Origin: Alphaproteobacteria bacterium
GTDB taxonomy: Bacteria; Pseudomonadota; Alphaproteobacteria; UBA6615
DNA: 64,000 bases
Direction of reading: 5' to 3'
Assembly (NCBI GenBank): GCA_039980135.1
Contig: JBDXCV010000009.1
Coordinates: 131,854 to 195,853, forward strand
The notes under the pieces are model-generated. The model was not told the origin of the DNA, searched no databases, and was given only the letters and a program-made list of their open reading frames with translations. The position numbers and the translations under genes were made by a program. Numbering within the stretch: position 1 is the stretch's first letter; each line of letters opens with the position of its first letter. Of this stretch, positions 5,435 through 56,694 are shown piece by piece.

Positions 5435-5525
5435 CGTCATGCCCGGACTTGATCCGGGCATCTCGCCTCACCGCATTGCCAATCGAATACCAACAGAGAT
5501 GCGCGGATCTAGTCCGCGCATGACG
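5435..5525. repeat. MITE/REP-like intergenic element (family A): two inverted hairpin units CGTCATGCCCGGACTTGATCCGGGCATCTC … GAGATGCGCGG…CCGCGCATGACG
   Basis: The arms are reverse complements of each other. Each arm is itself a hairpin (ATGCCCGG/CCGGGCAT). Lies between nrdB and the permease. Confidence 0.8.
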
Positions 5526-5563
5526 GCGTTTGTTCATGTTTCAAGCGTGGTAGAAATCATCCC

Positions 5564-7330
5564 ATGACCCCCGACCAGATCATCATCTTCGCCATCCTCG
5601 GCTTTTCCCTCGTGTTCTTCATGTGGGGCCGCTGGCGTTATGACATCGTGGCCTTCACCGCGCTGATCCTCGCCGTGATCGGTGGCGTGGTGCCGACCGA
5701 CCTGGCGTTCCGGGGCTTCGGCCACCCGGCGGTGATCACGGTCGCCGCGGTGCTGGTGATCAGCCGCACGCTGCAGGTCTCCGGCGTCATCGACCTGATC
5801 GCCGGCGCCGTCCTGCGGATGGCAAAGAGCCAGGGCAGTCAGATGACCGCCCTGTCGGGCATCGGTGCCGTGCTGTCGGCCTTCATGAACAATGTCGGTG
5901 CGCTGGCGCTGCTCATGCCGCTGGCGCTGCGCCTGTCCGAGCGCCCCTCGGCCGTGCTGATGCCGCTATCGTTTGCCACCATCCTCGGCGGCTTGGTCAC
6001 CCTGATCGGCACCCCACCGAATATTATCGTCGCGACCTTCCGCACGGATGTAACCGGCGAGCCGTTTGCGCTGTTTGATTTTGCCTTCGTCGGCCTGCCC
6101 ATCGCGCTGATCGGGCTGATCTTCGTCCTGGTGATCGGCTGGCGATTGCTCCCCTCGGACCGGACCGGGCGACGCTCGGCCGAGGAGATGTTCGATCTGG
6201 ATTCCTACGTGGTCGAGGTCAACGTCGATGCGGAATCCGAATTCATCGGCAAGACCGTGCGCGACCTCGAGGCGCTGGACGAGGACCGCTCCATCGTCGT
6301 CGGGCTGCTCCGGGAAGATTCACGACGCCTGACCTATATCCAGAATGAGCGGCTGCGTGCCGACGACACGCTGCTTCTGCGCGTGGACCCGGCGACCCTC
6401 GACGACCTGCTCAAGAAAGGCGGGCTGACGCTCACCGGCAGCGAGCATCTCGAAGAGCAAAACATCCGCTCCGACCAGGTCGGCACCGTCGAAGCGGTTG
6501 TCCAGCCCGGCTCCCGGATCGAGGGGCGCAGCCCGCAAACACTTGGCATGCGCCGGCGGTTCGGCGTCGCCCTCCTGGCTCTCGCCCGGGAAGGCCAGCC
6601 GGTCCGCGAACGCCTGGCACGCACCCAGTTTCGCGCCGGCGACGTACTGCTGCTCCAGGGCAATGAGGAGGAGCTCACCGACGCCGTCGCCGAAATGGGT
6701 TGCCTGCCGCTCGCCGAGCGGCGGCTGACGGTCGGCAAACCGCGCGCCGTGCTGATCCCCATCCTAATCTTCACGGCCTCCGTTCTGTCGACCGTGATGG
6801 GTTGGACGCCGGTCCATGTGTCATTCGCCGCCGCCGTGGTGGCGCTGATCCTGCTCAACCGGATCAGCGCCAACGAGGCCTACCAGACGATCGAATGGCC
6901 GGTCATCGTGCTGCTTGGGGCGATGATCCCACTGGGCAATGCGCTCCAGTTCACCGGCGGCACCCAGCTGATTGCCGAAAGCATCGTCGGCCTGTCCGGC
7001 AGCATCCCCATCTGGGCGGTGCTGACCATCGTGCTGGTCGTGACCATGACCCTGTCGGACCTGATGAACAACGCCGCCACGGCCATCGTCATGGCGCCGA
7101 TCTCGGTCGCGATCGCGAACCAGCTCGGGGTCAATGCCGACCCGTTCCTGATGGCGGTCGCCATCGGCGCTTCCTGCGCCTTCCTGACCCCGATCGGGCA
7201 TCAGAACAACGTGCTGGTGATGGGCCCGGGCGGCTACCGCTTCGGCGACTACTGGCGCATGGGCCTGCCGCTTGAGATCATCATCGTCGCCACGTCGGTA
7301 CCGCTGATCCTAATCTTCTGGCCGCTTTAG
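5564..7330 (+). CDS. DASS/SLC13-type anion permease with two central TrkA-C domains
   Basis: 588 aa. Hydrophobic N- and C-terminal halves flank two soluble TrkA_C-like repeats, resembling the YbiR/CitT-like ArsB/NhaD permease superfamily. Confidence 0.7.
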   Translation: MTPDQIIIFAILGFSLVFFMWGRWRYDIVAFTALILAVIGGVVPTDLAFRGFGHPAVITVAAVLVISRTLQVSGVIDLIAGAVLRMAKSQGSQMTALSGIGAVLSAFMNNVGALALLMPLALRLSERPSAVLMPLSFATILGGLVTLIGTPPNIIVATFRTDVTGEPFALFDFAFVGLPIALIGLIFVLVIGWRLLPSDRTGRRSAEEMFDLDSYVVEVNVDAESEFIGKTVRDLEALDEDRSIVVGLLREDSRRLTYIQNERLRADDTLLLRVDPATLDDLLKKGGLTLTGSEHLEEQNIRSDQVGTVEAVVQPGSRIEGRSPQTLGMRRRFGVALLALAREGQPVRERLARTQFRAGDVLLLQGNEEELTDAVAEMGCLPLAERRLTVGKPRAVLIPILIFTASVLSTVMGWTPVHVSFAAAVVALILLNRISANEAYQTIEWPVIVLLGAMIPLGNALQFTGGTQLIAESIVGLSGSIPIWAVLTIVLVVTMTLSDLMNNAATAIVMAPISVAIANQLGVNADPFLMAVAIGASCAFLTPIGHQNNVLVMGPGGYRFGDYWRMGLPLEIIIVATSVPLILIFWPL

Positions 7331-7341
7331 CTCTGTAAAAT

Positions 7342-7416
7342 CGTGATGCGCGGACTTGATCCGCGCATCTTGTCCCCGCCGAAGAAGAGATACCCGGGCC
7401 AAGCCCGGGTATGACG
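7342..7416. repeat. family A intergenic inverted-repeat element
   Basis: CGTGATGCGCGGACTTGATCCGCGCATC … GAGATACCCGGGCCAAGCCCGGGTATGACG. Confidence 0.8.
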
Positions 7417-7501
7417 TTTAAGATCTTGGCGTACGGTCGGCTCGCCGTGTTCGTGACAGGCCGTGACTATTCCCCCTAAACTCAACATCGGAGGGAACAG
7501 C

Positions 7502-8677
7502 ATGCAAACCATCGACATCAGCCCGGAAGAAATGGCGCCGCACATCGCACGCTTCAATGAACAGGAATCCCAGTCGGCGCATTATGCCGCGGACACCGGC
7601 ATCCCGCGCGAAGCCTATGAGATCATGGCGGCCGAAACGCTCTACCTGATGATGGCGCCCGAGAACCAGGGCGGGCCGATGGCCCAGAGGCCCGCCGTCA
7701 GCGGCGACAGCGGCACGAGCGTGATCATCGCGCGCTGCCCGCCGGGCGACAAACCCTTGCTGCACGCCCATCACTTCACCGTCGAGAGCTTCATGTGCCT
7801 GACCGGCAAGTTCCGAATCCGCTGGGGCAGCGCGGGCGAACAGGAGATCGACCTGGAGCCCCATGACATGATCGCCGTACCTCCGGGCGTGGACCGGCAG
7901 TTCGAGAACATCACCGACGAAGAGGCGCTGCTGCTGGTGATCATCAACGGCGAAGGCGATGAGGATTTCTCGGACATCTCGATGCCGCCGGGCGAGACAG
8001 ACTTCATGCGCGAAAAATTCGGTCAGGACGTCCTCGACGCCTACGCGAAGATCGGCACCGCCTGGCGCCACGCCGACGGCAGCATCAGCGGCCCGCAGGT
8101 GCCCGCCCCCATCGAGATTTCGGATGCACAGATGGCGACACGCATCGCGCGCATTGCGGACATGCAGCCGCTGTCGGCCACGTCGGGGGATTCCATCGGC
8201 GTGCCGCGTGAGGCGCGCGAGATGGTCGCGGCGAAGAACCTCTATCTGCTGATGGCGCCCGAGAATCAGGGCGGCCCCATGGCACATCACGCGGCGATCC
8301 AGGGTCCGGACAATATCAGTGTGCTGATCGCCGATTGCCCGCCGGGCGACCGCCCTCTGCTGCATGCCCATCACCACACGGTCGAGACCTTCATGTGCCT
8401 GACCGGTCGTTTTCGCATTCGCTGGGGCGAAGAGGGCCAGGACCATATCGACCTCGACCCCTACGACATGATCGCCGTGCCGCCCGGCGTCGATCGCCAG
8501 TTCGAGAATATCTCGGACGACGACGCGCGGCTGCTGGTGGTGATCACCGGCAGATCGCGCGAGGACTACAACGACATCTCGTTGCCACCACAATCGACGG
8601 CGATCATCCGCGAGCGCTTCGGTCAGGACGTCATCGACGCGTATGGCCAGAACGGGGTGACGGTCCGGGAGGGGTAG
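7502..8677 (+). CDS. bicupin protein (two tandem cupin domains)
   Basis: Two internal repeats of about 190 aa that are clearly homologous (PENQGGPMA…CPPGD+PLLHAHH+TVE+FMCLTG+FRIRWG…MIAVPPGVDRQFENI…FGQDV+DAY). Start placed at ATG 7502 behind GGAGGGA. The ORF track begins at GTG 7463. Confidence 0.7.
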   Translation: MQTIDISPEEMAPHIARFNEQESQSAHYAADTGIPREAYEIMAAETLYLMMAPENQGGPMAQRPAVSGDSGTSVIIARCPPGDKPLLHAHHFTVESFMCLTGKFRIRWGSAGEQEIDLEPHDMIAVPPGVDRQFENITDEEALLLVIINGEGDEDFSDISMPPGETDFMREKFGQDVLDAYAKIGTAWRHADGSISGPQVPAPIEISDAQMATRIARIADMQPLSATSGDSIGVPREAREMVAAKNLYLLMAPENQGGPMAHHAAIQGPDNISVLIADCPPGDRPLLHAHHHTVETFMCLTGRFRIRWGEEGQDHIDLDPYDMIAVPPGVDRQFENISDDDARLLVVITGRSREDYNDISLPPQSTAIIRERFGQDVIDAYGQNGVTVREG

Positions 8678-8682
8678 TATGA

Positions 8683-8758
8683 CGGTCATACGCGGACTTG
8701 ATCCGCGTATCTCGGCACCACCTGATGTGAGATGCCCGGATCAAGTCCGGACATGACG
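8683..8758. repeat. family A intergenic inverted-repeat element
   Basis: CGGTCATACGCGGACTTGATCCGCGTATCTC … GAGATGCCCGGATCAAGTCCGGACATGACG. Confidence 0.8.
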
Positions 8759-8770
8759 ATTTAAGGTGAA

Positions 8771-8793
8771 GGGGCGGGTTTGAATCCCGCCCG
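8771..8793. repeat. family B hairpin GGGGCGGGTTTGAATCCCGCCCG (terminator-like, between convergent genes)
   Basis: 7-bp GC stem GGGCGGG/CCCGCCC. The same motif recurs at 10791–10815, 46425–46494 and 53326–53348, always at gene 3' ends. Confidence 0.6.
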
Positions 8794-8804
8794 AAACCGA
8801 GTCT

Positions 8805-9155
8805 CTAAATCAAATCCTCGAGGGTGCGCTGCTGCTCGGGCTTCCAGCCGACCAGCACCCCCGCACCGGTCTCGATCACCGGGCGCTTGATCAGGGTCGG
8901 GTTCTCCGCCATCAGCTGCAGGCCGATATCCTCGGTGACGTTGTCGCGGATGACCTGATCGAGGTTCCGCCAGGTGGTGCTGCCGCGGTTGAGCAGGACT
9001 TCCCATCCCACTTCCATCGCCCATTCGGTGAGCTTGTCGCTGTCGACACCGTCGGCGCGGACGTCGAGGAAACGGTGTGGCGTCTCGCGACGCTCCAGCC
9101 ATTTCAATGCCTTCTTGGTCGTGTCGCAGCTCTTCAGGCCGTAGACCGTCAGCAT
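8805..9155 (-). CDS. ArsC/Spx/YffB-family thioredoxin-fold protein
   Basis: MLTVYGLKSCDT… carries the family's N-terminal CxxT/S motif. Start at ATG 9155 behind GAGAGGA. The ORF track extends further to 9284. Confidence 0.75.
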   Translation of the reverse strand: MLTVYGLKSCDTTKKALKWLERRETPHRFLDVRADGVDSDKLTEWAMEVGWEVLLNRGSTTWRNLDQVIRDNVTEDIGLQLMAENPTLIKRPVIETGAGVLVGWKPEQQRTLEDLI

Positions 9156-9270
9156 ATCGGCGTCCTCTCGTAAATACGGGTTTGGTGGTTTGGCGCGCTC
9201 GACGGGGCGCGCTAACCTGTCGTGTAACACGCGGATATAGGAATATCCGAGTCCCGGACAAGTCATCGAA

Positions 9271-10659
9271 ATGTCAGATAGCACTCAAACACATATCAGA
9301 CCCGCCGCAATCGCGGGGACGTTCTACCCCGCCGAGCCCGACGCGCTCACGCGCATGGTCGATGCCTGCATGGCCGGCGCACGGGACAACGGGCTGGCGC
9401 CCAAGGCGCTGATCGCGCCCCATGCGGGCTATATCTATTCCGGGCCCATCGCGGCCAGCGCCTACCAAACCGTCGCCGACCGGGCGGGCGAGATCAGCCG
9501 GGTCGTGCTGCTCGGCCCGCCCCACAAGGTGGCGGTGCGAAAATTCTGCGTGCCGTCCGCGCATGCATTCCGCACGCCGCTGGGAGATGTGCCCATCGAT
9601 TCGGCCGGCATCGCGACGGCCCTGACGGTGCCGGGTGTCGAGCAATCGGACATCCCCCATGCCGAGGAACACAGCCTGGAGATCCACCTGCCCTTCCTGC
9701 AGCGGGTGCTCGGGGATTTCACACTGGTCCCGGTGATCGTCGGCGGGCCATCACCCGACGAGACCGACGCGCTGCTCAAGGCGCTGTGGGGCGGCCCGGA
9801 GACCCTTGTGCTGATCAGCTCGGACCTCAGCCACTACCACGACTATGACGCGGCCAACCGGCTCGATCAGGGATTCCGGCGGTCCATCGAGACACTCAGC
9901 CCCGACAAGATCGAGGACGAACAGGCCTGCGGGCGGTTCCCGGTCAAGGGTCTGCTCGCGCGCGCCCACGCGCTCGACCTGCGGGTCACGACGCTGGACG
10001 TCCGCAATTCCGGCGACACCGGCGGGCGCGACCATCGCGACCGCGTGGTTGGGTATGGCGCCTGGGCGCTGGAATACGCGTCCACCGCCCGCCTGCCCGA
10101 CGACGACCGGGCCATGCTGATCGATGGCACGAAACGCTCCATCGCCAACGGGCTGCGCACCGGGCGCCCGGCCGAGGTGCAGCATGGCAGCTTTTCGCCG
10201 GCACTGGAGACCTACCGCGCCGCCTTCGTGACGCTGACGCTCAATGAAAGGTTGCGCGGCTGCGTCGGCAGCATCCTGCCGCACCGCTCGCTGATCGCCG
10301 ACGTGGCCGGGAACGGTTACAAGGCGGCCTTCGGCGACCCGCGATTTCCGAAGCTGACAGCCGAGGAAGCCGCGATGATGGATGTCTCGGTCTCGATCCT
10401 GTCCCACCCGCGACCGATCGCGTTTGCCTCCGAGGCCGAGGCGGTCGACGCGCTCCAGCCCGATGTCGACGGGGTGATCCTGCAGGCAACGGACGCGGAC
10501 GGGCACACGCGACGCGGCTTGTTCCTGCCCCAGGTCTGGGCGCAGGTGCCCGCGGCGGATCAGTTCCTGCGCCACCTGAAGGCCAAGGCAGGACTGCCGC
10601 AGGACCATTGGGACGATTCGATCCGCCTGTGGCGCTACACCACCGAGACGTTCCACTAG
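9271..10659 (+). CDS. fused AmmeMemoRadiSam system protein B (MEMO1-like) and protein A (AMMECR1 domain)
   Basis: The N-terminal ~270 aa match the MEMO1 family (AGTFYPAEP…APHAGYIYSG…HSLEIHLPFLQ). The C-terminal ~180 aa match AMMECR1 (RGCVGSILPHRSL…). The cognate radical SAM gene lies at 12302–13429 on the opposite strand. Confidence 0.8.
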   Translation: MSDSTQTHIRPAAIAGTFYPAEPDALTRMVDACMAGARDNGLAPKALIAPHAGYIYSGPIAASAYQTVADRAGEISRVVLLGPPHKVAVRKFCVPSAHAFRTPLGDVPIDSAGIATALTVPGVEQSDIPHAEEHSLEIHLPFLQRVLGDFTLVPVIVGGPSPDETDALLKALWGGPETLVLISSDLSHYHDYDAANRLDQGFRRSIETLSPDKIEDEQACGRFPVKGLLARAHALDLRVTTLDVRNSGDTGGRDHRDRVVGYGAWALEYASTARLPDDDRAMLIDGTKRSIANGLRTGRPAEVQHGSFSPALETYRAAFVTLTLNERLRGCVGSILPHRSLIADVAGNGYKAAFGDPRFPKLTAEEAAMMDVSVSILSHPRPIAFASEAEAVDALQPDVDGVILQATDADGHTRRGLFLPQVWAQVPAADQFLRHLKAKAGLPQDHWDDSIRLWRYTTETFH

Positions 10660-10673
10660 TATCCAAAAGAACA

Positions 10674-10841
10674 TGTCATGACCGGACTTGATCCGCGTAT
10701 CTCGAGACACCCTCATGGTTCGCTTGTCGTCGTATGGGGGTGAACGGACGGGTCGCAGACCCGCCCCTACATTGTGCTGCGGTGTTCCGTAGGAGCGGGT
10801 TTCAAACCCGCCCGTAAGCCACAGCACGTCCGGGCATGACG
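10674..10841. repeat. composite family A element carrying two internal family B (GGGCGGG-stem) hairpins
   Basis: Left unit TGTCATGACCGGACTTGATCCGCGTATCTC. Right terminal GTCCGGGCATGACG. Internal hairpins at 10745–10770 and 10791–10815. Confidence 0.7.
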
Positions 10842-10911
10842 CTATGATTGGTTGCCCGAACACGGATCACACCGCTAGGATTCCACCTCAATTCAGGCTG
10901 GGGGCCTTCAT

Positions 10912-12183
10912 ATGAGTGACGTGACGGAAGCACGCAACCGCCGCAAGGTGATCGCCGCCGGTATCACCGGCAATGTTCTGGAATGGTACGACTTTGCGGT
11001 TTACGGCTTCTACGCGCCGATCATCGGCCGGCTGTTCTTCCCCTCCGACGACCCGACCGTCTCGCTGATCGCCTCCTTCGGCGCGTTCGCCGCCGGGTTC
11101 ATGATGCGCCCGATCGGCGGTTTCGTGTTCGGCTATATCGGCGACAAGATCGGCCGCAAACGCGCGCTCGTGCTGTCCGTCATGCTGATGGCGATCCCCA
11201 CCGGCGTGATCGGCATCCTGCCCGACCACGCCACCATTGGTGTCGCCGCGGCCTTCCTCATGGTGGCGATGCGCATGCTCCAGGGCCTGTCGGTCGGCGG
11301 CGAATACACCGGCTCGATCGTCTATCTGGCCGAGCATTCCCCGACCCGTCGCCGCGGCTTCTTCACCAGCTGGACGCTATTCGGCGCGGTCGGCGGCATC
11401 CTGCTCGGCTCGGGCGTCAGCGCGCTGGTCAGCGAATTCATGTCGGCCGAAGACGTCTCGGCCTGGGGCTGGCGCCTGCCGTTTTTGGGCGGCATCCTGG
11501 TCGGCGTGGTCGGCCTGGTGATCCGCCGTCACCTGCCGGACATGCCCGAGGACGACGCGGCCGACAAACCGAAGAACCCGGTCATCGAGGCGCTGACAAC
11601 CCAGTGGCAGGCCATGCTCAAGGTCATCGGCTTCAACATCATCAACGCCGTCGGCTTCTACATGATGTTCGTCTATGTGGTGACCTGGCTGATCAAGCAG
11701 GTGAAGGAGCCGCGCTCCGACGCGCTCGACATCAACACCATCTCCATGGCTGTTCTGCTGGTGCTGATCCCGCTGTTCGGCGCCTTGTCCGACCGGATCG
11801 GCCGCAAGCCGCTGCTGATGTTCGGCGCGGGCGGTATCGCCCTTCTCGGCTACCCGCTGATCTGGCTGATGCACCATCCGGACTTCGAGATGATCCTCGC
11901 CGGACAACTCGGCTTCGCGGTGCTGATCGGCGCCTATTTCGGCGGCGCGCCGGCGGCCCTGACGGAGATGTTCCCGCGCCGGGTCCGGGTGAGCGCGCTG
12001 TCGGTCGGCTACAATGTGGGGCTTGCCATCTTCGGCGGCACGACGCCGCTGGTCGCGACCTGGCTCATCGCCCGGTCCCACAACGATCTATCGATCGCCT
12101 GGTACCTGATCGCCTGCGCGGTCGTGTCGTTCGCCGTGGTGCTGACCCTGAAGGAGACGGCGGGCAAACCGCTGCCGGATTAG
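10912..12183 (+). CDS. MFS transporter, metabolite:H+ symporter (MHS/ProP-KgtP-like) family
   Basis: 423 aa with about 12 TM segments. Carries an MHS signature region (WYDFAVYGFYA…GDKIGRKR). Confidence 0.8.
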   Translation: MSDVTEARNRRKVIAAGITGNVLEWYDFAVYGFYAPIIGRLFFPSDDPTVSLIASFGAFAAGFMMRPIGGFVFGYIGDKIGRKRALVLSVMLMAIPTGVIGILPDHATIGVAAAFLMVAMRMLQGLSVGGEYTGSIVYLAEHSPTRRRGFFTSWTLFGAVGGILLGSGVSALVSEFMSAEDVSAWGWRLPFLGGILVGVVGLVIRRHLPDMPEDDAADKPKNPVIEALTTQWQAMLKVIGFNIINAVGFYMMFVYVVTWLIKQVKEPRSDALDINTISMAVLLVLIPLFGALSDRIGRKPLLMFGAGGIALLGYPLIWLMHHPDFEMILAGQLGFAVLIGAYFGGAPAALTEMFPRRVRVSALSVGYNVGLAIFGGTTPLVATWLIARSHNDLSIAWYLIACAVVSFAVVLTLKETAGKPLPD

Positions 12184-12202
12184 AAGCCCACCCAATGATT
12201 AT

Positions 12203-12294
12203 CGTCATGCCCGCGCAGGCGGGCATCCATAAACGCCACAGCCAGCCGGGTGAACCGCCTGTGATTATGGGTCCCCGCCTTCGCGGGGACGACG
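12203..12294. repeat. divergent family A-like element
   Basis: CGTCATGCCCGCGCAGGCGGGCAT … GGTCCCCGCCTTCGCGGGGACGACG. Same CGTCATG/…GACG termini and the same hairpin-arm logic. Confidence 0.55.
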
Positions 12295-12301
12295 AGTTGG
12301 G

Positions 12302-13429
12302 CTAGCTCCGCAGCTCCACCGGCTTGCGCTTGCGGCCCCAGTTCCCTGGTGCGGCGTCGAACACGCCGGGGATACGCGTCCCGCAGTTCGCACACGCTCC
12401 GCCGGTGTTCCCCACCGGGGTGATGTTCCACTCGCTGAGTTCGTACCACTCGCGGCCGATCGTCCGCGCCGCGCAGTTCGGGCAGTAGCTGCTCTGCCGG
12501 CCCTTGTCGTGGACATTGCCGGTGTAGACATAGTTCACCCCGGCTTCGAGCGCGATCCGGCGCGCCCGGGCCAGCGTTTCGTGAGGCGTGGCCGGCGTGT
12601 CCATCATCTTCCAGTCGGGATGAAAGGCCGAGAAATGCACCGGCACATCGGGGCCGAGATTCTCGACGATCCAGGCGGACATCGCCGCCAGTTCCGCCGG
12701 GTCGTCATTCTGGCCGGGGATGATCAGGTTGGTGATCTCGAGCCAGCAATCGGTCTCGTGGCGGATATAGACCAGCGTGTCGAGCACATCGGCGAGCGAG
12801 GCAGTGCAGAGCTGCTGGTAGAAATCCTCGGTGAAACCCTTTAGGTCCACATTCGCCGCATCCATCTGGTGGAAAAACTCCGCTCGGGGTTCGGGCGTGA
12901 TGTAGCCCGCCGTCACCGCGACCGTGCGTACGCCGACCTCGCGGCAGGCCTGGGCCACGTCGACGGCGTATTCGAGGAAGATCACCGGGTCGTTGTAGGT
13001 AAACGCAACCGACCGGCAGCCATGCTCGGCCGCCGCTTTCGCAATCGCCGCGGGCATCGCCTGATCGGCCAGGGTATCGAATTCCCGGCTCTTGGAGATG
13101 TCCCAGTTCTGGCAGAATTTGCACGTCAGGTTGCAGCCTGCCGTGCCGAAGCTCAGGACCGGCGTGCCCGGCAGAAAATGGTTGAGCGGCTTCTTCTCGA
13201 TCGGATCGATGCAATAGCCCGAGGAGCGGCCATAGGTCGTGAGCACGATCTGATCGTCTTCGCGTGCGCGCACAAAACACAGCCCGCGCTGTCCGTCGTT
13301 CAGCTTGCAGAAACGCGGGCACAGATCGCACTGGATGCGTCCGTCGTCGAGCGGATGCCAGTAGCGCCCGGGGAAATCACCCGGGGCGTCCCCGGATTCT
13401 GGTGTTCTCTGTTCGCTTTCTGCGGCCAT
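12302..13429 (-). CDS. AmmeMemoRadiSam system radical SAM enzyme
   Basis: CxxxCxxC cluster (CDLCPRFC) followed by a radical SAM core and a glycine-rich motif (SFGTAGCNLTCKFCQN), typical of the PFL-activase-like family. The ORF track extends to 13492. The nearest ATG in frame is at 13429. Confidence 0.8.
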   Translation of the reverse strand: MAAESEQRTPESGDAPGDFPGRYWHPLDDGRIQCDLCPRFCKLNDGQRGLCFVRAREDDQIVLTTYGRSSGYCIDPIEKKPLNHFLPGTPVLSFGTAGCNLTCKFCQNWDISKSREFDTLADQAMPAAIAKAAAEHGCRSVAFTYNDPVIFLEYAVDVAQACREVGVRTVAVTAGYITPEPRAEFFHQMDAANVDLKGFTEDFYQQLCTASLADVLDTLVYIRHETDCWLEITNLIIPGQNDDPAELAAMSAWIVENLGPDVPVHFSAFHPDWKMMDTPATPHETLARARRIALEAGVNYVYTGNVHDKGRQSSYCPNCAARTIGREWYELSEWNITPVGNTGGACANCGTRIPGVFDAAPGNWGRKRKPVELRS

Positions 13430-13546
13430 CACGGGCAAAGAATAACAGAGTATTTGCGCCGGAGGGCTTGGTCTCGACGGATCAAGTCGCATATCATCCT
13501 CGCAACGTATTCATACATTCAGATCAAGCCTCCAAGAGGACCTCTC

Positions 13547-15883
13547 ATGGGCCAGTTCGGCATCGGTCAATCCGTCACGCGTATCGAAGACCTCCGGCTC
13601 CTGACCGGCGGCGGCACCTACGCGGATAATGTGCAGCTCGACAATGAGAGCCATGCCTTCGTGCTGCGCTCCCCCCACGCCCATGCCGAGCTCGGCGCGA
13701 TCGATACGGCCGCCGCAGAAACGGCACCCGGCGTGCTTCTGGTACTCACGGGCGCGGATCTGGCGGGCGACAACATCAGCCCCATGCCGTGCATGTTCCC
13801 GGTCACCAACCTTGATGAAACCGACAACGTGAAGCCCGAGCGGCCGCTTCTGGCCCAGGGCAAGGTCCGTCATGTCGGCCAGCCGGTGGCGCTCATCGTG
13901 GCAGAAACGCTCGATCAGGCGCGTGACGCCGCCGATCTGATCGAAGTCGACTACACCCCGCTCGCCGCTTCGACCGACACCTTCCGCACGACCCAGGACG
14001 GGGCGGCGCAAATTCACGACGACGCGCCGAACAACATCTGCTTCGACTGGGGCAAGGGCGATCAGGCGGCCACCGAGGCGGCGTTTGCCAAGGCCGCCCA
14101 TGTCACCACGCTGGAGCTGACGAACAACCGGATCATCGTCAATCCGATGGAGCCGCGCGCGGCCATCTGCGACTACGACACCGCGAGCGACCGGCTGACC
14201 CTCTACACCTCGTCGCAGGGTACCCATGTCATCCGCGACGCGCTGGCCGGCAGCATCCTCAACATCGACAAGGAACGGCTGCGGGTCGTCACCGGCGACG
14301 TCGGGGGCGGTTTCGGCATGAAGATTTTCCCCCATCCCGAGCAGCCGCTCGTGACCTGGGCCGCCATGAAACTTAAGCGTGCCGTGCGCTGGACGTCGGA
14401 ACGCAGCGAGGGCTTCCTGTCGGATATCCAGGGCCGCGACCATGTCACCAAGGCCGAGGTGGCCTGCGATGGCGACGGCAGGTTCCTCGGGCTGCGGGTC
14501 ACGACCTACGCCAATCTCGGGGCCTACCTGTCCCATTTCGGCACCTACATACCCACCGAGGCCGGCACGACGATGCTCAACGGCCTGTACGCCTTCCCGG
14601 CGGTCTGGGCCAACGTGAAGGGCGTGTTCTCCAACACCGTGCCGACAGACGCCTATCGGGGCGCCGGCCGTCCCGAGGCGATCTACTGCATCGAGCGCCT
14701 GGTAGACAAATGTGCGCGCGAGCTTGGCCTGTCGCCCGACGAAATCCGGCGGCGCAACTTCATCCGGCCCGACAAGCTTCCGTTCGAAACCGCCTTCGGT
14801 GAGATCTATGACAGCGGCAATTTCACCGCGATCATGGAAGAAGGCATGAAGCAGGCCGACTGGGCGGGTTTCCCGGCACGCAAGGCCGAGAGTGCCAGGC
14901 AGGGCAAGCTGCGCGGCATCGGCATGGCGACCTATGTGGAGAAATGCGGCGGCGGCAATGCCGAAGTTGCCGATGTGCGCATCGATTCCGACAACGAAAT
15001 CATCACCTTCTACATCGGCACCATGTCGAATGGGCAGGGCCACGACACATCCTACAAGCAGATCATGTCCGACCGGCTGGGCATCGACACCGACCAGATG
15101 GTCATGGTGCAGGGCGACAGCGATATCGTGCCGCCGGGCCTGACCGGCGGATCGCGTTCGGTCACGGTCGGCGGCGTCGCCGTCGCCAAGTCGTCGGAGG
15201 AAATCATCGAGAAGGGCCGCGCGGTCTCGGCGCACATGATGGAGGCCGCCGAGGCCGACATCGAATATGCCGCCGGCACCTTCCGCGTGGCCGGTACGGA
15301 CCGGACCATGTCCCTGTTCGAGGTCGCCAGGGCAGCAAACGACCCGGCGAACCTGCCGGACGACATGGAACCGGGGCTCGATACGTCCGTCTCCCACACG
15401 CCCGATGCGGCGACCTTCCCCAACGGCTGCCATATCTGCGAGATCGAGATCGATCCGGACACGGGCATCCCGGAAATCCAGCGCTACACCGTGGTCGATG
15501 ATTTCGGCGACACGATCAACCCATTGCTGATCGAGGGCCAGGTGCATGGCGGGGTCGTGCAGGGCGTCGGACAGGCGCTGCACGAGCACACGATCTATGA
15601 CGAAGAGTCGGGCCAGCTCGTCTCGGGCTCGTTCATGGATTACCGCATGCCGCGCGCCGATGACGTGCCCCGGTTCGCGTTTTCCATGCGTAACGAGAAG
15701 TGCACGACCAACCCGCTGGGCATCAAGGGCACCGGCGAGGCCGGCGCCATCGGCGCCCCGCCGGCCGCGATCAGCGCCATCGTCGATGCATTGTCGAGCG
15801 ATGGCGGGTTCCCCGATGTGGACATGCCGGCGACGCCGGACGTCATCTGGGCGCTTGCCAACCGACCGCTCGCGGCCGAGTAG
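13547..15883 (+). CDS. xanthine dehydrogenase-family molybdopterin-binding subunit (CoxL/aldehyde oxidase-like large subunit)
   Basis: MGQFGIGQSVTRIEDLRLLTG is the canonical N-terminus of Mo-hydroxylase large subunits. Start at ATG 13547 behind AAGAGGA. The ORF-track start at 12869 is an antisense read-through of the radical SAM gene. Confidence 0.85.
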   Translation: MGQFGIGQSVTRIEDLRLLTGGGTYADNVQLDNESHAFVLRSPHAHAELGAIDTAAAETAPGVLLVLTGADLAGDNISPMPCMFPVTNLDETDNVKPERPLLAQGKVRHVGQPVALIVAETLDQARDAADLIEVDYTPLAASTDTFRTTQDGAAQIHDDAPNNICFDWGKGDQAATEAAFAKAAHVTTLELTNNRIIVNPMEPRAAICDYDTASDRLTLYTSSQGTHVIRDALAGSILNIDKERLRVVTGDVGGGFGMKIFPHPEQPLVTWAAMKLKRAVRWTSERSEGFLSDIQGRDHVTKAEVACDGDGRFLGLRVTTYANLGAYLSHFGTYIPTEAGTTMLNGLYAFPAVWANVKGVFSNTVPTDAYRGAGRPEAIYCIERLVDKCARELGLSPDEIRRRNFIRPDKLPFETAFGEIYDSGNFTAIMEEGMKQADWAGFPARKAESARQGKLRGIGMATYVEKCGGGNAEVADVRIDSDNEIITFYIGTMSNGQGHDTSYKQIMSDRLGIDTDQMVMVQGDSDIVPPGLTGGSRSVTVGGVAVAKSSEEIIEKGRAVSAHMMEAAEADIEYAAGTFRVAGTDRTMSLFEVARAANDPANLPDDMEPGLDTSVSHTPDAATFPNGCHICEIEIDPDTGIPEIQRYTVVDDFGDTINPLLIEGQVHGGVVQGVGQALHEHTIYDEESGQLVSGSFMDYRMPRADDVPRFAFSMRNEKCTTNPLGIKGTGEAGAIGAPPAAISAIVDALSSDGGFPDVDMPATPDVIWALANRPLAAE

Positions 15884-46424: not shown

Positions 46425-46494
46425 TCGGGGGGTTTGAATCCCGCCCCTGCATTCCTGGTTAAATGCCGGTAGGGGCGGGTCTTTGACCCGCCCG
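46425..46494. terminator. pair of family B GC-rich hairpins downstream of GST gene
   Basis: CGGGGGGTTTGAATCCCGCCCC and GGGGCGGGTCTTTGACCCGCCCG. No U-tract, so a role as a rho-independent terminator is tentative. Confidence 0.45.
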
Positions 46495-46555
46495 TGGATC
46501 CGGACAACCAACGAACGTTCTCCGAAAACCTTGCCGGTTTTGCATTTTCTTATTT

Positions 46556-48940: not shown

Positions 48941-48952
48941 AGGGCCGATCCG

Positions 48953-49432: not shown

Positions 49433-49444
49433 ACTCTCTCTAGT

Positions 49445-49530
49445 CGTCATGCCCGGACTTGATCCGGGCATCTCAGCTCGATTTCAGCCGCGGGGCGCAC
49501 GAGATACGCGGGTCAAGCCCGCGTATGACG
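49445..49530. repeat. family A element
   Basis: CGTCATGCCCGGACTTGATCCGGGCATCTCAG … CGAGATACGCGGGTCAAGCCCGCGTATGACG. Confidence 0.85.
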
Positions 49531-49550
49531 AACCGGGATAGACCGCCCGT

Positions 49551-50537
49551 CTAGTCCCCCAACAAGAACGGCAGCGCCTTCGCCAGCGTATCCGCCGGGT
49601 TTTCCTCGACATAGAAATGCCCGCCATCGACCAGCGCGACTTTGGCGTCGGGCAGGTATTCCTCCAGCCCCTCGTAGTTTTCGACCGGCATCGGCGGCTC
49701 GTCGGAGCCCTGCAGGATCAGCATCGGTGCGGTCCAGGCCGGGATCAATCGGGTCAGCCGGTCGATCCAGTCCTTGCGGAAGGTCGAGGACTGAAAATAC
49801 CGCTCCACCGCGACGCCGGTACCCGGGCGCGAGAATTCCTGCATGGCGCGGATCACGTCCGGCTTGGGGATCGGGTGCTTGCACAAACGGCCGAAGCCCC
49901 ATTCGAAGACCTTGACCGGGTCCTGGAGAATGCCGCGGGTCTCGAGGTTCGTAAACATCAACTCCTGGGGTGCAAGGTCCGGGTGGAAATGAATCAGATG
50001 CTGGGATCCGCGCACCCAGCGAAGGACCCGGTCGGCATGTTTGGCGGCGATGAAATCCGCCTGAACGGTGCCCCGGTCGTGACTGAACAGGTGAAACTTC
50101 TCCACCCCGATCGTGTCGAGCAGGGAGACCACCTGTTCCGCGACACCCTCATGGCGGTAGTCGCCGCGGCGATTGTCGGACTGGCCGTAGCCCTTGAGAT
50201 CGATGGCGATGCAGCGGAAATGCTTCGCCAGTTCCGGCAGGATCGGCCGCCACATGCACCAGGATTGCGGAATACCGTGCATCAGCAACAGCACCGGGCC
50301 TTTACCCGCCTCGACGAAATGCCAGCGGATGGTCTCGCTCTCGCCCGGGGCCTCCACAAACCTATGCTTGACGTCCAGCCCGCCGATATCCTCGGTCTCG
50401 CCGTCCGTATTCTCGGGCGCAGGCGGCAGGCCTTCGGCCGCGATCTCCTTCAGGGTCGCGACCATCTCCGGGTGGTTATGCCCGGTGCGCATCAGTTCGA
50501 GCGCCGCTTCACTCACCGGTCGGTATTCGAGGTCCAT
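49551..50537 (-). CDS. alpha/beta hydrolase (epoxide hydrolase-like)
   Basis: HGIPQSW and the nucleophile elbow FSHDRG. Start at ATG 50537 (MDLEYRP). The ORF track's N-terminal MPGSSPGMT… is a translation of the flanking repeat element. Confidence 0.75.
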   Translation of the reverse strand: MDLEYRPVSEAALELMRTGHNHPEMVATLKEIAAEGLPPAPENTDGETEDIGGLDVKHRFVEAPGESETIRWHFVEAGKGPVLLLMHGIPQSWCMWRPILPELAKHFRCIAIDLKGYGQSDNRRGDYRHEGVAEQVVSLLDTIGVEKFHLFSHDRGTVQADFIAAKHADRVLRWVRGSQHLIHFHPDLAPQELMFTNLETRGILQDPVKVFEWGFGRLCKHPIPKPDVIRAMQEFSRPGTGVAVERYFQSSTFRKDWIDRLTRLIPAWTAPMLILQGSDEPPMPVENYEGLEEYLPDAKVALVDGGHFYVEENPADTLAKALPFLLGD

Positions 50538-50576
50538 GATGTCCTTCTCCCCTATTCTGCAACCACTAAAACCAAT

Positions 50577-50662
50577 CGTCATGCCCGGACTTGATCCGGG
50601 CATCTCAGTTCAATTCCAGCCTCATGGCGCACGAGATACGCGGGTCAAGCCCGCGTATGACG
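50577..50662. repeat. family A element, near-identical direct copy of 49445–49530
   Basis: Same orientation and about 90% identity to the 49445 copy. Together the two copies flank the alpha/beta hydrolase gene. Confidence 0.85.
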
Positions 50663-50674
50663 GCTTGTTCTGGG

Positions 50675-51658: not shown

Positions 51659-51752
51659 GGGGTTTCCTCAAACAAATTGACGTCGGTTGATTATGTGCTG
51701 TTCGCCGATACGGCGGCGCAGAGTTATCTAGTCCTTCACGCCCGGAAGGACA

Positions 51753-52340: not shown

Positions 52341-52438
52341 CTTGTGTGTCCCTCCTCTTGTTTGCGGCCATCCGGCTGGCTAGGCTTTGATCCAATGTGC
52401 CAAACAAGGCACGCGGACACCAAGGGGGAAGTTCCATC

Positions 52439-53314: not shown

Positions 53315-53325
53315 GGCTGGAATAC

Positions 53326-53348
53326 GGGCGGGTTTCAAACCCGCCCGC
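53326..53348. terminator. family B hairpin downstream of BKACE gene
   Basis: CGGGCGGGTTTCAAACCCGCCCG, a near-perfect palindrome. Confidence 0.45.
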
Positions 53349-53360
53349 CATTCCCTTCAT

Positions 53361-53435
53361 CGTCATGCGCGGGCTTGACCCGCGTATCTCGTCTCAGAAC
53401 CACATGAGATGCCCGGATCAAGTCCGGGCATGACG
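53361..53435. repeat. family A element (opposite orientation)
   Basis: CGTCATGCGCGGGCTTGACCCGCGTATCTCG … GAGATGCCCGGATCAAGTCCGGGCATGACG. Confidence 0.85.
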
Positions 53436-53446
53436 TGGTGGTAGAC

Positions 53447-54901
53447 CTAAGCAATCCCGCCCAGGCAGAGATATTTGATCTCCACATAGTCGTCGATGCC
53501 GTAGTGGGAGCCCTCGCGGCCCACGCCGCTCTCCTTGACCCCGCCGAAGGGCGCGACCTCGGTCGAGATCAGGCCGGTGTTCACCCCGATGATGCCGGAC
53601 TCGAGTCCCTCCGAGACCTTCCAGACGCGTTTGAGATCGGACGCATAGAAATACGCCGCCAGGCCGAACTCCGTGTCGTTGGCCATGGCGATGCCCTCTT
53701 CGTCCGAACCGAAGCGGTACAAAGGCGCCAGCGGCCCGAACGTCTCTTCCCGGCTGACGTCCATGGTCGGCGTGACGTCCACCAGCAGTGTCGGCTGAAA
53801 GAACGTGCCGCCGAGATCGTGGCGCGCGCCGCCGACGGCGATTTTCGCGCCCTTGGCGACGGCGTCGGCGATATGCTGTTCCACCTTCTCGACCGCCGCC
53901 ATGTCGATCAGCGGGCCCTGCTGCACGTCTTCGGACAGGCCATTGCCGACGTTGAGTTCGCGCACGGCTTCGGAAAGTTTCTCGGTGAAGGCCTCATAGA
54001 CCCCGTCCTGTACGAGAATCCGGTTGGCACACACGCATGTCTGGCCAGTGTTGCGGTACTTCGACGCCATGGCGCCAACCACGGCGGCATCCAGATCGGC
54101 GTCATCGAACACGAGGAACGGCGCATTGCCGCCCAGTTCCATCGACACCTTCTTGATCGTCTGGGCCGACTGGGCCATCAGCACCTTGCCCACCTCGGTC
54201 GAGCCGGTGAAGGTCAGCTTGCGCACGATGGGGTTCGACGTGATCTCCTCGCCGATCTCCTTCGACGAACCCGTGACGACCGACAAAACCCCCGCCGGCA
54301 CCCCGGCGCGTTCGGCCAGTTCGACCATCGCGAGCGCCGAATAGGGCGTCGAGGTGGCGGGCTTCACCACCATCGAGCAGCCCGCGGCCAGGGCCGGGCC
54401 CGCCTTGCGGGTGATCATCGCGGCGGGGAAGTTCCACGGCGTGATCGCCGCCGTAACACCGATGGGTTCCTTCAACACAACGATCCGCGTGTCGCGGGTA
54501 TGGCCGGGGATGGTGTCGCCGTAGATGCGCTTGCCCTCCTCCGCGAACCACTCGATGAAGGCGGCCGCATAGGCGATCTCGCCCCGGCTCTCGGCGATCG
54601 GCTTGCCCTGTTCGGTGGTCATCAGGATCGCCAGATCTTCCTGGTTCGCCATCATCAGATCGTGCCACTTGCGCAGGATGGCGGCGCGCTCCTTGCCGGT
54701 GCGCGTTTTCCATTCCTTCTGGGCTTCCTCGGCCGCCTCGATCGCGCGGCGGGTTTCGGCCGTGCCCATCTTCGGGATGGTGCCGATGACCGCGCCGTCG
54801 GCCGGGTTGGTCACTTCGATGGTCTCGCCCGAATCCGCGTCGGCCCATTCGCCGTTCACGTAGCATTGCTGGCGGAAAAGCGTGCTGTCTGAGAGTTTCA
54901 T
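53447..54901 (-). CDS. gabD: NAD(P)-dependent succinate-semialdehyde dehydrogenase
   Basis: ALDH catalytic motifs (ELGGNAP, catalytic Cys in GQTCVCANR). Start placed at ATG 54901. The ORF track extends to 55039. Confidence 0.85.
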   Translation of the reverse strand: MKLSDSTLFRQQCYVNGEWADADSGETIEVTNPADGAVIGTIPKMGTAETRRAIEAAEEAQKEWKTRTGKERAAILRKWHDLMMANQEDLAILMTTEQGKPIAESRGEIAYAAAFIEWFAEEGKRIYGDTIPGHTRDTRIVVLKEPIGVTAAITPWNFPAAMITRKAGPALAAGCSMVVKPATSTPYSALAMVELAERAGVPAGVLSVVTGSSKEIGEEITSNPIVRKLTFTGSTEVGKVLMAQSAQTIKKVSMELGGNAPFLVFDDADLDAAVVGAMASKYRNTGQTCVCANRILVQDGVYEAFTEKLSEAVRELNVGNGLSEDVQQGPLIDMAAVEKVEQHIADAVAKGAKIAVGGARHDLGGTFFQPTLLVDVTPTMDVSREETFGPLAPLYRFGSDEEGIAMANDTEFGLAAYFYASDLKRVWKVSEGLESGIIGVNTGLISTEVAPFGGVKESGVGREGSHYGIDDYVEIKYLCLGGIA

Positions 54902-55063
54902 GGCCCCGTCCCCTGAATTGCCTTTTCCAAAGCATAGGCCCGTGGAGACAGGACGGACAACCGACCAACCATTCATTGTCATTCCGGCTGCAGGCGCGTC
55001 AGCGCCGGAAGGCCGGAATCCATAGACGCCGGCGTTCAACCGGGCAGACGCTTGTGTTTATGG

Positions 55064-55197
55064 ATGCCCGCCTACGCGGGCATGACGCGGCGTTGTGGCC
55101 ATGGCATGACGCCACCCAAAGCCGTCATACGCGGGCTTGACCCGCGTATCTCGTCTCGGCGCGTGATGAGATGCCCGGATCAAGTCCGGGCATGACG
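55064..55197. repeat. family A element (55123–55197) preceded by a solo hairpin unit (55064–55087)
   Basis: ATGCCCGCCTACGCGGGCATGACG solo unit. Then CGTCATACGCGGGCTTGACCCGCGTATCTCG … GAGATGCCCGGATCAAGTCCGGGCATGACG. Confidence 0.8.
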
Positions 55198-55199
55198 AA

Positions 55200-56567
55200 C
55201 TATGCGGGAAAGAACCTGCTTGCCGGCCGGTCCAGACCGAGATTCTCGCGCAGTGTCGTACCTTCATATTCCGTGCGGAACAGGCCGCGCTTCTGGAGCA
55301 GCGGCACCACCTCGTCCATGAACGGGTTCATCAGTGCGGGGATCACCGGCGGCATGTAGTTGAAGCCGTCGGCTGCGGGGCCGCCCCCATCACTTCCTGC
55401 GCTGTCCGGGTCGCACCAGTCCTGGATGAGGTCGGCGATCTGCTCGGGCGTGCCCGCCGTCGTGTAATGGCCGCGCCCGCCCGCGAACCGCGCCAGCAGC
55501 TCGCGCAGGGTCAGGCCTTCCTTCTCGACGATCCGCACGATCAGCGCCGCGCGGCTCTTCATGGTCTCGAGACCCTCGGGCTCGGGGAAGTCCGACGCCT
55601 TGAGCGGCTGGTCGAGATCGATATGGGAGAAATCATGCCCCGCGAACCGCTGGGAGAGTGTGCGGCGGCCGACCTCCGGGTCCATCCGGGCGTTCAGTTC
55701 CATCAGATTCTCTTTCGCCTCGGCCTCGGTGCCGCCGATCACGGGGTTGAGCCCCGGCAGGATCACCACCTGGTCGGCGTTGCGGCCGAAATTGGCGGCG
55801 CGTTTCTTGATGTCCCTATAGAATTCCTGGGCGGTTTCCTTCTCCAGATGGGCCGTAAAAATCGCCTCGGCGTGGAGCGCGGCGAAATCCCGCCCGCGAT
55901 CCGACGCGCCGGCCTGCACCAGCACGGGCCGGCCTTGCGGGCTGCGCGGCACGTTCAGCGGCCCCTTGACCTGGTAATACTCGCCCTTGAAATCGATCGG
56001 CGTGATCCGCGAAAGATCGCCGCACACGCCGCCGGCCTGTTTGTCAGGGGTGCGGTCATCCACCAGCGCGTCGTCGGCCCAGCTGTCCCACAGGTCCTTC
56101 ACCGCGGCGACGAACTCCTCGCCCTTCTCGTAGCGGTCGCCATGGGCGGTGTGCTCGCGCCCGTAATTGGCCGCAACCGCCTCGACCCAGGTGGTGACGA
56201 TGTTCCACGCCGCCCGGCCGCCGGAGATGTGGTCGATGGAGGCGAACTGGCGCGCCAGGTTGTAAGGCTCGGAATAGGTGCACGAGCCCGTGGCGATCAG
56301 CCCGACCCGTTCGGTCTGCATGGCGATCGCGGCGAGCATGATCACCGGGTCGGGCCAGAAGCGGCCGGATTCCATGGCGTCGTTGGTCATCATCAGCACG
56401 TCGGCGAAGAAGATGGAATCGAGCTTCGCCGCCTCGGCCTGTTTGGCCAGGTCCACATAGTAGGAGATGTCCATCAGCGAGCGCGGATCGGCACCGGGAT
56501 GATCCCACGCCGTCTCATGATGACCTCGCGACTGGATGAAGAGATTGATGTGGATGGGTTTGGGCAT
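55200..56567 (-). CDS. LLM-class flavin-dependent monooxygenase (NtaA/SnaA/DszA family)
   Basis: MPKPIHINLFIQSRGHHETAW… N-terminus and the ~455 aa length are characteristic of this family. The ORF-track extension to 56660 is a translation of repeat DNA. Confidence 0.8.
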   Translation of the reverse strand: MPKPIHINLFIQSRGHHETAWDHPGADPRSLMDISYYVDLAKQAEAAKLDSIFFADVLMMTNDAMESGRFWPDPVIMLAAIAMQTERVGLIATGSCTYSEPYNLARQFASIDHISGGRAAWNIVTTWVEAVAANYGREHTAHGDRYEKGEEFVAAVKDLWDSWADDALVDDRTPDKQAGGVCGDLSRITPIDFKGEYYQVKGPLNVPRSPQGRPVLVQAGASDRGRDFAALHAEAIFTAHLEKETAQEFYRDIKKRAANFGRNADQVVILPGLNPVIGGTEAEAKENLMELNARMDPEVGRRTLSQRFAGHDFSHIDLDQPLKASDFPEPEGLETMKSRAALIVRIVEKEGLTLRELLARFAGGRGHYTTAGTPEQIADLIQDWCDPDSAGSDGGGPAADGFNYMPPVIPALMNPFMDEVVPLLQKRGLFRTEYEGTTLRENLGLDRPASRFFPA

Positions 56568-56664
56568 GGTGGGACCGGCAAGTTGTGACGCTGAAATGTC
56601 AGAGCCGGAGTTTGCCTTGTGGAGGGTCAAATTGGGAGTCTGTGTGACAACCCAACACACATAC

Positions 56665-56694
56665 CGTCATACACGGGCTTGATCCGGGTATCTC
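56665..56694. repeat. truncated (single-arm) family A element at left junction of low-GC island
   Basis: CGTCATACACGGGCTTGATCCGGGTATCTC is present with no partner arm. The vsr stop codon follows immediately. Confidence 0.65.

Follow-up and report, generated by a model that had tools for sequence, protein, structure and literature searches.

The DNA analysed here is a 64,000-nt stretch (the window) from an uncultured marine alphaproteobacterium of the UBA6615 lineage (assembly GCA_039980135.1, contig JBDXCV010000009.1, positions 131,854 to 195,853 of the forward strand), and all window counts below refer to these 64 kb of the host genome. Short palindromic repeats recur in it just behind the stop codons of genes for, among others, the small subunit of ribonucleotide reductase (RNR), a transporter, a cupin protein, an aldehyde dehydrogenase and a luciferase-like monooxygenase. 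They belong to an already described class, the CGTC-tagged repetitive extragenic palindromes (REPs): the main family is a CTC-tail variant of CGTC-3, and the minor family is CGTC-1-like.

The initial annotation had listed ten copies and described them as a REP-like intergenic mosaic family. Its motif matches 16 times in the window against 0.02 matches expected from shuffled sequence, and all ten positions carry CGTC-tagged palindromes. A profile search recovered the same 16 full 30-nt CGTC-3 units plus one truncated arm and no others, making up seven intact doublets, one interrupted doublet and one singlet. A sequence-agnostic scan for any tetranucleotide followed by a perfect palindrome of at least 8 bp ranked CGTC first among the preceding 4-mers, with 13 perfect CGTC-tagged palindromes in the window, and exposed a second subfamily (CGTC, 8-bp stem, 4-nt loop and CCA tail). 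These CGTC-1-like units number three, one doublet and one singlet. The elements are given below with their gene context, which was taken from a gene map based on G+C content at third codon positions (GC3), Pfam hits and public gene calls; tags point outward in head-to-head (HH) doublets, the internal spacer separates the two arms, and family B is a separate hairpin (GGGCGGGTTTCAAACCCGCCC).

5435–5525: CGTC-3 HH heterodimer, arms ATGCCCGGA / ATGCGCGGA, internal spacer 31 nt; co-directional gene spacer, 16 nt past the RNR small-subunit stop.
7342–7416: CGTC-3 HH heterodimer, left tag degenerate (CGTG), right arm with a 10-bp stem and 3-nt loop, internal spacer 15 nt; 11 nt past the transporter gene stop.
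8684–8758: CGTC-3 HH heterodimer, left tag GGTC, internal spacer 15 nt; convergent gene spacer, 6 nt past the cupin gene stop, followed by a family-B hairpin at 8772–8792.
10674–10841: interrupted CGTC-3 HH doublet; left unit 10674–10703 with a TGTC tag and chimeric stem, two family-B hairpins inside (10746–10766 and 10793–10813), right arm truncated to its last 14 nt (10828–10841, ...GTCCGGGCATGACG).
12203–12294: CGTC-1-like HH doublet, 8-bp stem, 4-nt loop, CCA tail; convergent gene spacer between the stops of a major facilitator superfamily (MFS) gene (12183) and a radical S-adenosylmethionine (radical-SAM) gene (12302).
49445–49530: CGTC-3 HH heterodimer, arms ATGCCCGGA / ATACGCGGG, internal spacer 26 nt; convergent gene spacer, stop codons 12 nt and 20 nt away.
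50577–50662: CGTC-3 HH heterodimer with the arms of the 49445 copy and an internal spacer related to it; 12 nt past the ADH stop (minus strand), 40 nt upstream of the hydrolase start at 50537.
53361–53435: CGTC-3 HH heterodimer, internal spacer 15 nt; convergent gene spacer, 11 nt past the aldehyde dehydrogenase stop, preceded by a family-B hairpin at 53326–53346.
55064–55087, minus strand: CGTC-1-like singlet, CGTC ATGCCCGC GTAG GCGGGCAT CCA, in one gene spacer with the next doublet.
55123–55197: CGTC-3 HH heterodimer, internal spacer 15 nt; 2 nt past the luciferase-like monooxygenase gene stop (minus strand).
56665–56694, plus strand: CGTC-3 singlet, stem with two mismatches; shares 2 nt with the stop codon of vsr, on the left border of a low-GC island.

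The mosaic description holds, in that the units match the published CGTC-3 definitions and share gene spacers with CGTC-1-like units and family-B hairpins, and the composite copy with family-B hairpins in its interior lies at 10674–10841 as described. Some details needed revision. A size of 75–95 bp applies to the doublets (75–92 bp) but not to 56665, which is a single 30-nt unit; the copy placed at 8683 is present and starts at 8684; and 12203, grouped with the others, is indeed palindromic but belongs to the second subfamily, whose singlet at 55064–55087 had been missed.

Family-B hairpins lie in 3′ gene spacers too (8772–8792, 10746–10766, 10793–10813, 46426–46446, 46473–46493 and 53326–53346), often beside or inside CGTC doublets. 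GTAG precedes two of them (at 10789 and 46469), and these may be GTAG-tagged REPs, a superfamily that has REP-associated tyrosine transposases (RAYTs); the family-B loop GGGTTTGAATCCC resembles a tRNA T-arm. Between 12295 and 49444, 37 kb with many 3′ spacers, the profile search found no CGTC unit, and a 3′ spacer at about 46.4 kb holds family-B hairpins instead. A draft contig of the same organism (JBDWYK010000033.1, GCA_039982435.1) ends at window position 49463, inside the 49445 doublet, as expected where assemblies break at multicopy repeats; a further contig, which matches window 2747–15662 exactly, ends within genes, so the assembly is fragmented for further reasons as well.

The CGTC-3 unit of the window is 30 nt long and reads CGTC-ATGCCCGGA-CTTGA-TCCGGGCAT-CTC, that is, an unpaired tag, a 9-bp stem, a 5-nt loop and a 3-nt tail. 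Each arm folds as a hairpin of its own, as the initial annotation had it, although the stem is one pair longer than described there. The tag is degenerate in three window units (CGTG, GGTC and TGTC). CGTC-tagged REPs were defined by Di Nocera, De Gregorio & Rocco (2013, BMC Genomics 14:522; PMC3733652) as palindromes with an unpaired CGTC (or TGTC/CCTC) at one end, a stem that opens with A-T and T-A pairs and measures 8 bp in families 1 and 2 and 9 bp in families 3 and 4, a loop of 4 or 5 nt and a 3-nt tail, mostly CCA. In their survey HH dimers predominate, with heterodimers predominant in family 3; the repeats lie between co-directional or convergent open reading frames (ORFs), less than 20 bp from stops, in mainly alphaproteobacterial hosts, in families of tens to thousands of units per genome, and no associated transposase was found. 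The window units share the CGTC-3 tag, the 9-bp A-T/T-A stem with 5-nt loop, the HH heterodimers and the near-stop location; the tail has the right length but reads CTC against the consensus CCA. The peptides VIAGLDPAIH and DARVKPAHD given for Rhodopseudomonas palustris CGTC-3 (PMC3733652 supplement) encode a unit of the window type: VIAGLDPAIH back-translates to CGTC-ATCGCCGGG-CTTGA-CCCGGCGAT-CCA, and that sequence occurs among the units we collected.

Tags face outward in all seven intact doublets and in the interrupted one, and the internal spacers of the CGTC-3 doublets measure 15, 26 or 31 nt. When the seven doublets are aligned with their flanks, conservation begins at (T)CGTC and ends at GACG; the internal spacers are variable, apart from those of the 49445 and 50577 copies, which are clearly homologous. 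The homology boundaries at the tags and the spacer common to these two copies indicate that the tag-to-tag doublet is the unit that is copied. Folded as RNA, the doublets reach −37 to −52 kcal/mol (z = −4 to −8), with two local hairpins and one long imperfect hairpin of nearly equal energy.

The hairpin was tested on units from a wider collection; to keep the test free of circularity, these were anchored on nothing more than the tag, the loop and the two opening bases of the stem. Among the 107 units outside the scan-pattern selection, 91 form a pair with their unselected 3′ arm at stem position 3, against 39.5 expected, using all four Watson–Crick pair types. In 60 distinct units, 87.2% of the cells are paired, compared with 70.0% in shuffles, and there are 83 double-sided changes, compared with 27.9 (neither value was reached in any of 500 shuffles); the covariation score is 0.45 in the true register and 0.05–0.11 in slid registers. 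The 9-bp hairpin thus covaries strongly. The tag, stem positions 1, 2 and 6–8, and the loop are invariant or nearly so in the same 60 units. An origin in conserved tRNA or rRNA structures, named in the initial annotation among the findings that would refute it, is extremely improbable: ARAGORN found no tRNA or tmRNA in the window, no Rfam match overlaps the elements, and the unit is a simple 9-bp hairpin. The only tRNA-like feature, the T-arm-like loop, is in the separate family B, and nothing in the CGTC units favours such an origin.

CGTC-3 repeats are widespread. A degenerate unit pattern, run over a collection with one genome per species, matched at least 120 stretches; the matches listed come from Bradyrhizobium, Rhodopseudomonas, Dongia, Telmatospirillum, Ferrovibrio, Chelatococcus, Bosea, Ancylobacter, Azorhizobium, Methyloligella and others, plus one Neisseria, and among them are four Rhodopseudomonas genomes and many Bradyrhizobium genomes. 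Whole doublets were also found in a plasmid collection, on secondary replicons of Skermanella (several doublets) and Rhizobium, while unrelated marine contigs totalling 796 kb, of which 378 kb exceed 58% GC, yielded no units. Of 249 units across sources, 233 have AT as the opening bases of the stem (positions 1 and 2) and 204 have a CTTGA loop; 196 end in a CCA tail and 22 in CTC, as in the window. The betaproteobacterium Neisseria dentiae (locus L085) has CGTC-3-like singlets with plus-strand starts at 2676 and 7316 and, on the minus strand, reverse-complement starts at 596 and 5247; each is followed by a T-rich run (e.g. ATCTTTGATTTTTT), so that they resemble intrinsic terminators, unlike the window copies.

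The arrangement of the units follows a strict pattern. HH doublets outnumber tail-to-tail doublets by 86 to 4 across sources, and the 87 HH doublets collected from 70 sources include no homodimer, where pooled random pairing would give about 9.7. In 75 of the 87 doublets the two arms have opposite pairs at stem position 4 (C-G against G-C), at least one transversion separates the arms in 84, and in the window doublets the base-pair flip that distinguishes the arms lies at stem position 5. This two-arm-type rule fits a heterodimer state that is inherited because the doublet is what is copied, and it also fits selection against perfect long palindromes.

No window element is more than 20 nt away from a stop codon reading into it, and all of them occupy co-directional or convergent gene spacers, in agreement with the strictly intergenic placement noted initially. 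The same bias is seen across sources: 67 co-directional, 51 convergent and only 4 divergent spacers among 122 classifiable elements, compared with a divergent share of 21% among background spacers. By crude ORF calling from GC3, 54 of 194 elements fall ‘inside’ ORFs, and the one such case in the window is spurious. The repeat at 50577 supplies two in-frame ATG codons (50537–50603), which add 22 spurious residues (MPGSSPGMT...) to the hydrolase; the plausible start of this gene is the ATG at 50537, preceded by the Shine–Dalgarno sequence GGAGAAGG.

Position and stability fit the precedent of Escherichia coli REP hairpins, which stabilize upstream mRNA, attenuate transcription and, when near stop codons, stall ribosomes (PMC12306157); by this analogy the elements probably act as mRNA 3′ hairpins. 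A role as canonical intrinsic terminators can be set aside, given that the flanks beyond GACG in the doublet alignment are not T-rich and contain no T-tract, and that terminator scans of 4.0–13.5 kb and 48.5–57.5 kb called no doublet on the relevant strand. The sole call is one arm (7412–7390, minus strand) between plus-strand genes. The earlier suggestion of non-autonomous mobile elements, mRNA 3′-end structures or both stays plausible without its terminator variant. One could go further and regard the elements as terminators or attenuators that evolved locally and never moved, their similarity arising by convergent selection or gene conversion. Their place directly past stop codons, their very stable hairpins and the T-runs behind the N. 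dentiae units would suit this idea, which we nevertheless consider improbable: near-identity over 30 nt, between unrelated loci and across distant genera, cannot come from convergence, the homologous internal spacers of two copies indicate copying, the window copies have no T-tract and the one arm called as a terminator is on the wrong strand, and no Rfam family matches.

The same gene neighbourhoods in relatives of about 80–92% identity, reached through the transporter gene (loci L122–L124) and the aldehyde dehydrogenase gene (L206–L211), were compared with the window, and polymorphism for presence or absence is evident. The spacer between the RNR and transporter genes (5435 in the window) holds a CGTC-3 doublet in L122 too, an unrelated inverted-repeat element of about 95 nt in L123, and in L124 a CGTC-1-like doublet (911–1002) that is 86% identical to window 12203–12294. 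The spacer orthologous to that of 7342 holds other repeat families in L122 and L123, and the convergent cupin/ArsC spacer (8684), filled in the window, is essentially empty in L122. On the other side, the convergent hydrolase/repressor spacer (49445) is an empty 6 nt in L206 and has three different fillings elsewhere; the ADH–hydrolase spacer (50577) is an empty 9 nt in L209 and L211, contains an element of a third family in L206 and two CGTC-3 units in L207; and the spacer between the aldehyde dehydrogenase gene and its neighbour (53361) is empty, at 15 nt in L207 and 31 nt in both L209 and L210, while in L206 it carries a doublet with a foreign palindromic element nested between its arms, mirroring the composite copy of the window. 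A visibly decayed doublet occupies the luciferase–aldehyde dehydrogenase spacer (55123) in L209–L211. Over the same genes the relatives have between 0 and 3.7 units per 10 kb. With orthologous spacers empty, filled, decayed or occupied by other repeats, the elements have evidently been gained and lost, and this varied occupancy marks the spacers as hot spots filled independently by several repeat families.

The third repeat family just mentioned, about 95 nt long (GCTTCGAGACGCC...CCTCAGCATGAGG...GGCGTCTCGAAGGATG), was found in orthologous 3′ spacers of the relatives and is absent from the window:

L122: 2625–2740
L123: 1040–1150 and 4290–4400
L206: 9745–9850 and 14790–14890
L209: 9900–10000

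Family-B hairpins also occur in relatives (L123, L207 and L209–L211). The block at window 9347–13176 (Memo/AMMECR1, MFS transporter and radical-SAM genes) is absent from L122 and L123, where ArsC is directly followed by an aldehyde-oxidase-type gene; the block still carries the REP elements 10674 and 12203. The cupin gene contains an internal duplication (7594–8043 against 8194–8643, about 72% nucleotide identity, two cupin domains) that gives off-diagonal BLAST hits in the window and all relatives.

Presence and absence among relatives, together with the inverted-repeat shape, the short interior and the length of 75–92 bp, might suggest miniature inverted-repeat transposable elements (MITEs), deletion derivatives of insertion sequences (ISs) that a DDE transposase moves by their terminal inverted repeats, and the initial annotation had used this label. 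Such an origin is very unlikely. Direct repeats abutting 86 doublets are 0 nt (67 doublets), 1 nt (13), 2 nt (5) or 3 nt (1) long, with no excess over offset controls, so there is no sign of target-site duplication; the flanks show only a modest preference for T before CGTC and A after GACG. The ends consist of a 4-nt tag and a hairpin rather than IS-derived terminal inverted repeats, and each arm is itself a covarying hairpin, which is a hallmark of REPs. The 30-nt unit also occurs singly and is conserved across several orders, unlike short-lived MITEs. Neither the window nor the collected loci showed an IS with such ends, although no systematic IS search was made.

To the right of the last unit lies the low-GC island (56693–63260), with a GC content of 0.42–0.58 against about 0.64–0.69 in adjacent genes. 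It comprises:

56693–57226, minus strand: Vsr
57199–58893, plus strand: C5 cytosine methylase
58927–59760, minus strand: DUF6339
59753–60598 and 60595–62499, minus strand: two ORFs without a Pfam match

The island is absent from all relatives at that position, where a flavin adenine dinucleotide (FAD)-oxidase gene is followed at once by either the luciferase-like gene or a small lipocalin gene, pointing to a lineage-specific insertion of restriction-modification or defence type. Insertion into a doublet was considered and is unproven, as there is no partner arm at the right edge and no REP in the spacer of the relatives. The initial annotation had placed a density peak beside the island; however, the cluster at 5.4–12.3 kb, some 45 kb away, is as dense as that at 49.4–56.7 kb, and two of the window's spacers also hold elements in L207, a related contig that stops short of the island position. 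A link between the REPs and the island is thus unsupported.

As for a copying enzyme, a weak resemblance to RayT in two REP-bearing loci (L045 and L108) came from unrelated proteins, an NMO-like oxidoreductase and a malonyl-CoA-decarboxylase-like protein. In Neisseria, a REP doublet able to form a hairpin (REPIN), with the master sequence ATTCCCGCGCAGGCGGGAATC, has been tied to a Group 2 RAYT in later REPIN work. In an N. gonorrhoeae chromosome (NZ_CP119142.1, 2.17 Mb though filed as a plasmid; L205: 1260–2030) we found a frameshifted Group 2 RAYT gene directly flanked left and right by GTAG-tagged palindromes (GTAGGTCGGATTC..GAATCCGAC), with a CGTC-1 (dRS3-type) HH doublet about 130 nt upstream. 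This locus is ambiguous as proof of a RAYT for CGTC repeats, and the published association of the CGTC-1 sequence with the Neisseria RAYT may rest on proximity; the link is suggestive only.

Taken together, the CGTC-3 repeats of the window and the few CGTC-1-like ones are best read as HH heterodimers resembling bacterial interspersed mosaic elements (BIMEs) and REPINs, non-autonomous, tolerated at the 3′ ends of genes and probably serving as mRNA hairpins there, a reading to which we give a probability of roughly 65%. The tag-to-tag doublet would be copied in trans, without target duplication, by an enzyme that recognizes tag and hairpin, either a RAYT-type HUH nuclease or a functional analogue. 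Copies would persist only in 3′ spacers, presumably because insertions elsewhere are harmful. Transcribed together with the upstream gene, the hairpins would most likely act as barriers to 3′-to-5′ exonucleases and as attenuators, in the manner of E. coli REPs.

Several observations weigh against this picture. The filled and empty sites come from lineages about 10–20% diverged, recombination or gene conversion could in principle also yield gain, and copies were counted over 64 kb of this genome. Searches with E. coli RayT (tblastn) turned up no convincing homologue, either in the window or among the roughly 1.9 Mb of loci collected, nor any alphaproteobacterial RAYT in the plasmid and chromid collection, the doublet-bearing Skermanella replicons included, and the literature searched assigns no enzyme to CGTC repeats. 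For the RNA role, G·T and A·C stem mismatches (25 and 18) show no strand polarity, which suits a DNA-level role equally, and orientation relative to transcription is balanced for singlets (12 and 13) and for the type of the proximal arm (16 and 12).

BIMEs of E. coli bind gyrase, integration host factor (IHF) or DNA polymerase I. The repeats could be DNA-level host sites of that kind, or else have an anti-recombination or domain-organizing role, in either case maintained by a conserved protein irrespective of transcription. The missing polarity would be natural for such sites, as would doublets of two unit types like the Y and Z REPs; moreover, a tag, stem positions 1, 2 and 6–8 and a loop that are invariant across orders suggest a sequence-specific protein partner. 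Host sites alone are still an unlikely explanation. They fail to account for orthologous positions that are freely empty or hold unrelated repeats and for the range of unit densities that relatives show over shared genes (0 to 3.7 per 10 kb), and the concentration 2–20 nt past stop codons with avoidance of divergent spacers points to selection at the transcript end or on expression.

Within the reading of the doublets as trans-copied elements, we tentatively raise the possibility, without favouring it, that CGTC-3 doublets are propagated by a non-RAYT enzyme conserved across Alphaproteobacteria, one that would recognize the tag, stem positions 1, 2 and 6–8 and CTTGA, and would require two arm types. 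The absence of homodimers among 87 doublets, the lack of target-site duplications, the nested palindromes, the empty and filled sites and the absence of a RayT homologue in the sampled DNA are handles towards the copying enzyme.

The window case is in itself routine, a known class of small repeat in a new lineage. CGTC repeats nevertheless form a large REP superfamily without a known copying enzyme, and this locus and its relatives could help to identify one or to test a host function, offering occupied, empty and decayed orthologous sites, a strict two-arm rule and evidence against a duplication-making transposase. There are practical effects as well: start codons supplied by REPs, as at 50577, are a likely source of misannotated starts and spurious ORFs in REP-rich genomes, short-read assemblies may break at the doublets, and the repeats mark the 3′ ends of genes.

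Among known systems the closest is CGTC-3 as described elsewhere, which the window family resembles in tag, stem, loop, 3-nt tail, HH heterodimers, near-stop sites, alphaproteobacterial hosts and the lack of an adjacent transposase. It differs in its tail (CTC, found also in close relatives, rather than CCA) and in the stem position of the arm flip (5 rather than 4), and its host belongs to an undescribed marine Rhodospirillales-like lineage. RIME1 and RIME2, which Osteras et al. are said to have reported in 1995 as Rhizobium-specific intergenic mosaic elements, are likened here by description only: they too are alphaproteobacterial, intergenic, about 100 bp long and built of palindromic modules in mosaic with other repeats, much as CGTC-3, CGTC-1-like and family-B hairpins share spacers in the window. 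Whole window doublets match Rhizobium plasmids at only about 74–75%.

The REPs and BIMEs of E. coli are likewise intergenic palindromic mosaics of two alternating unit types, Y and Z, which parallel the two arms of the window family, and lie in 3′ untranslated regions, frequently no more than about 15 nt from the stop codon; they are documented exonuclease barriers and attenuators (PMC12306157). Their sequence is unrelated, their tag is of the GTAG superfamily, and a cognate RayT is present. The REPIN–RAYT system (Bertels & Rainey; PMC3116915, bioRxiv 10.1101/2021.07.10.451892) likewise has a pair of REPs in inverted orientation, separated by a short spacer and able to fold into one long hairpin, a doublet that behaves as the copied unit, single units that resemble remnants, and long-term persistence. 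Its tag is GTAG and that of the window is CGTC; the CGTC-1-like unit of the window (ATGCCCGCGCAGGCGGGCATC) is identical to the Neisseria REPIN master sequence at 19 of 21 positions.

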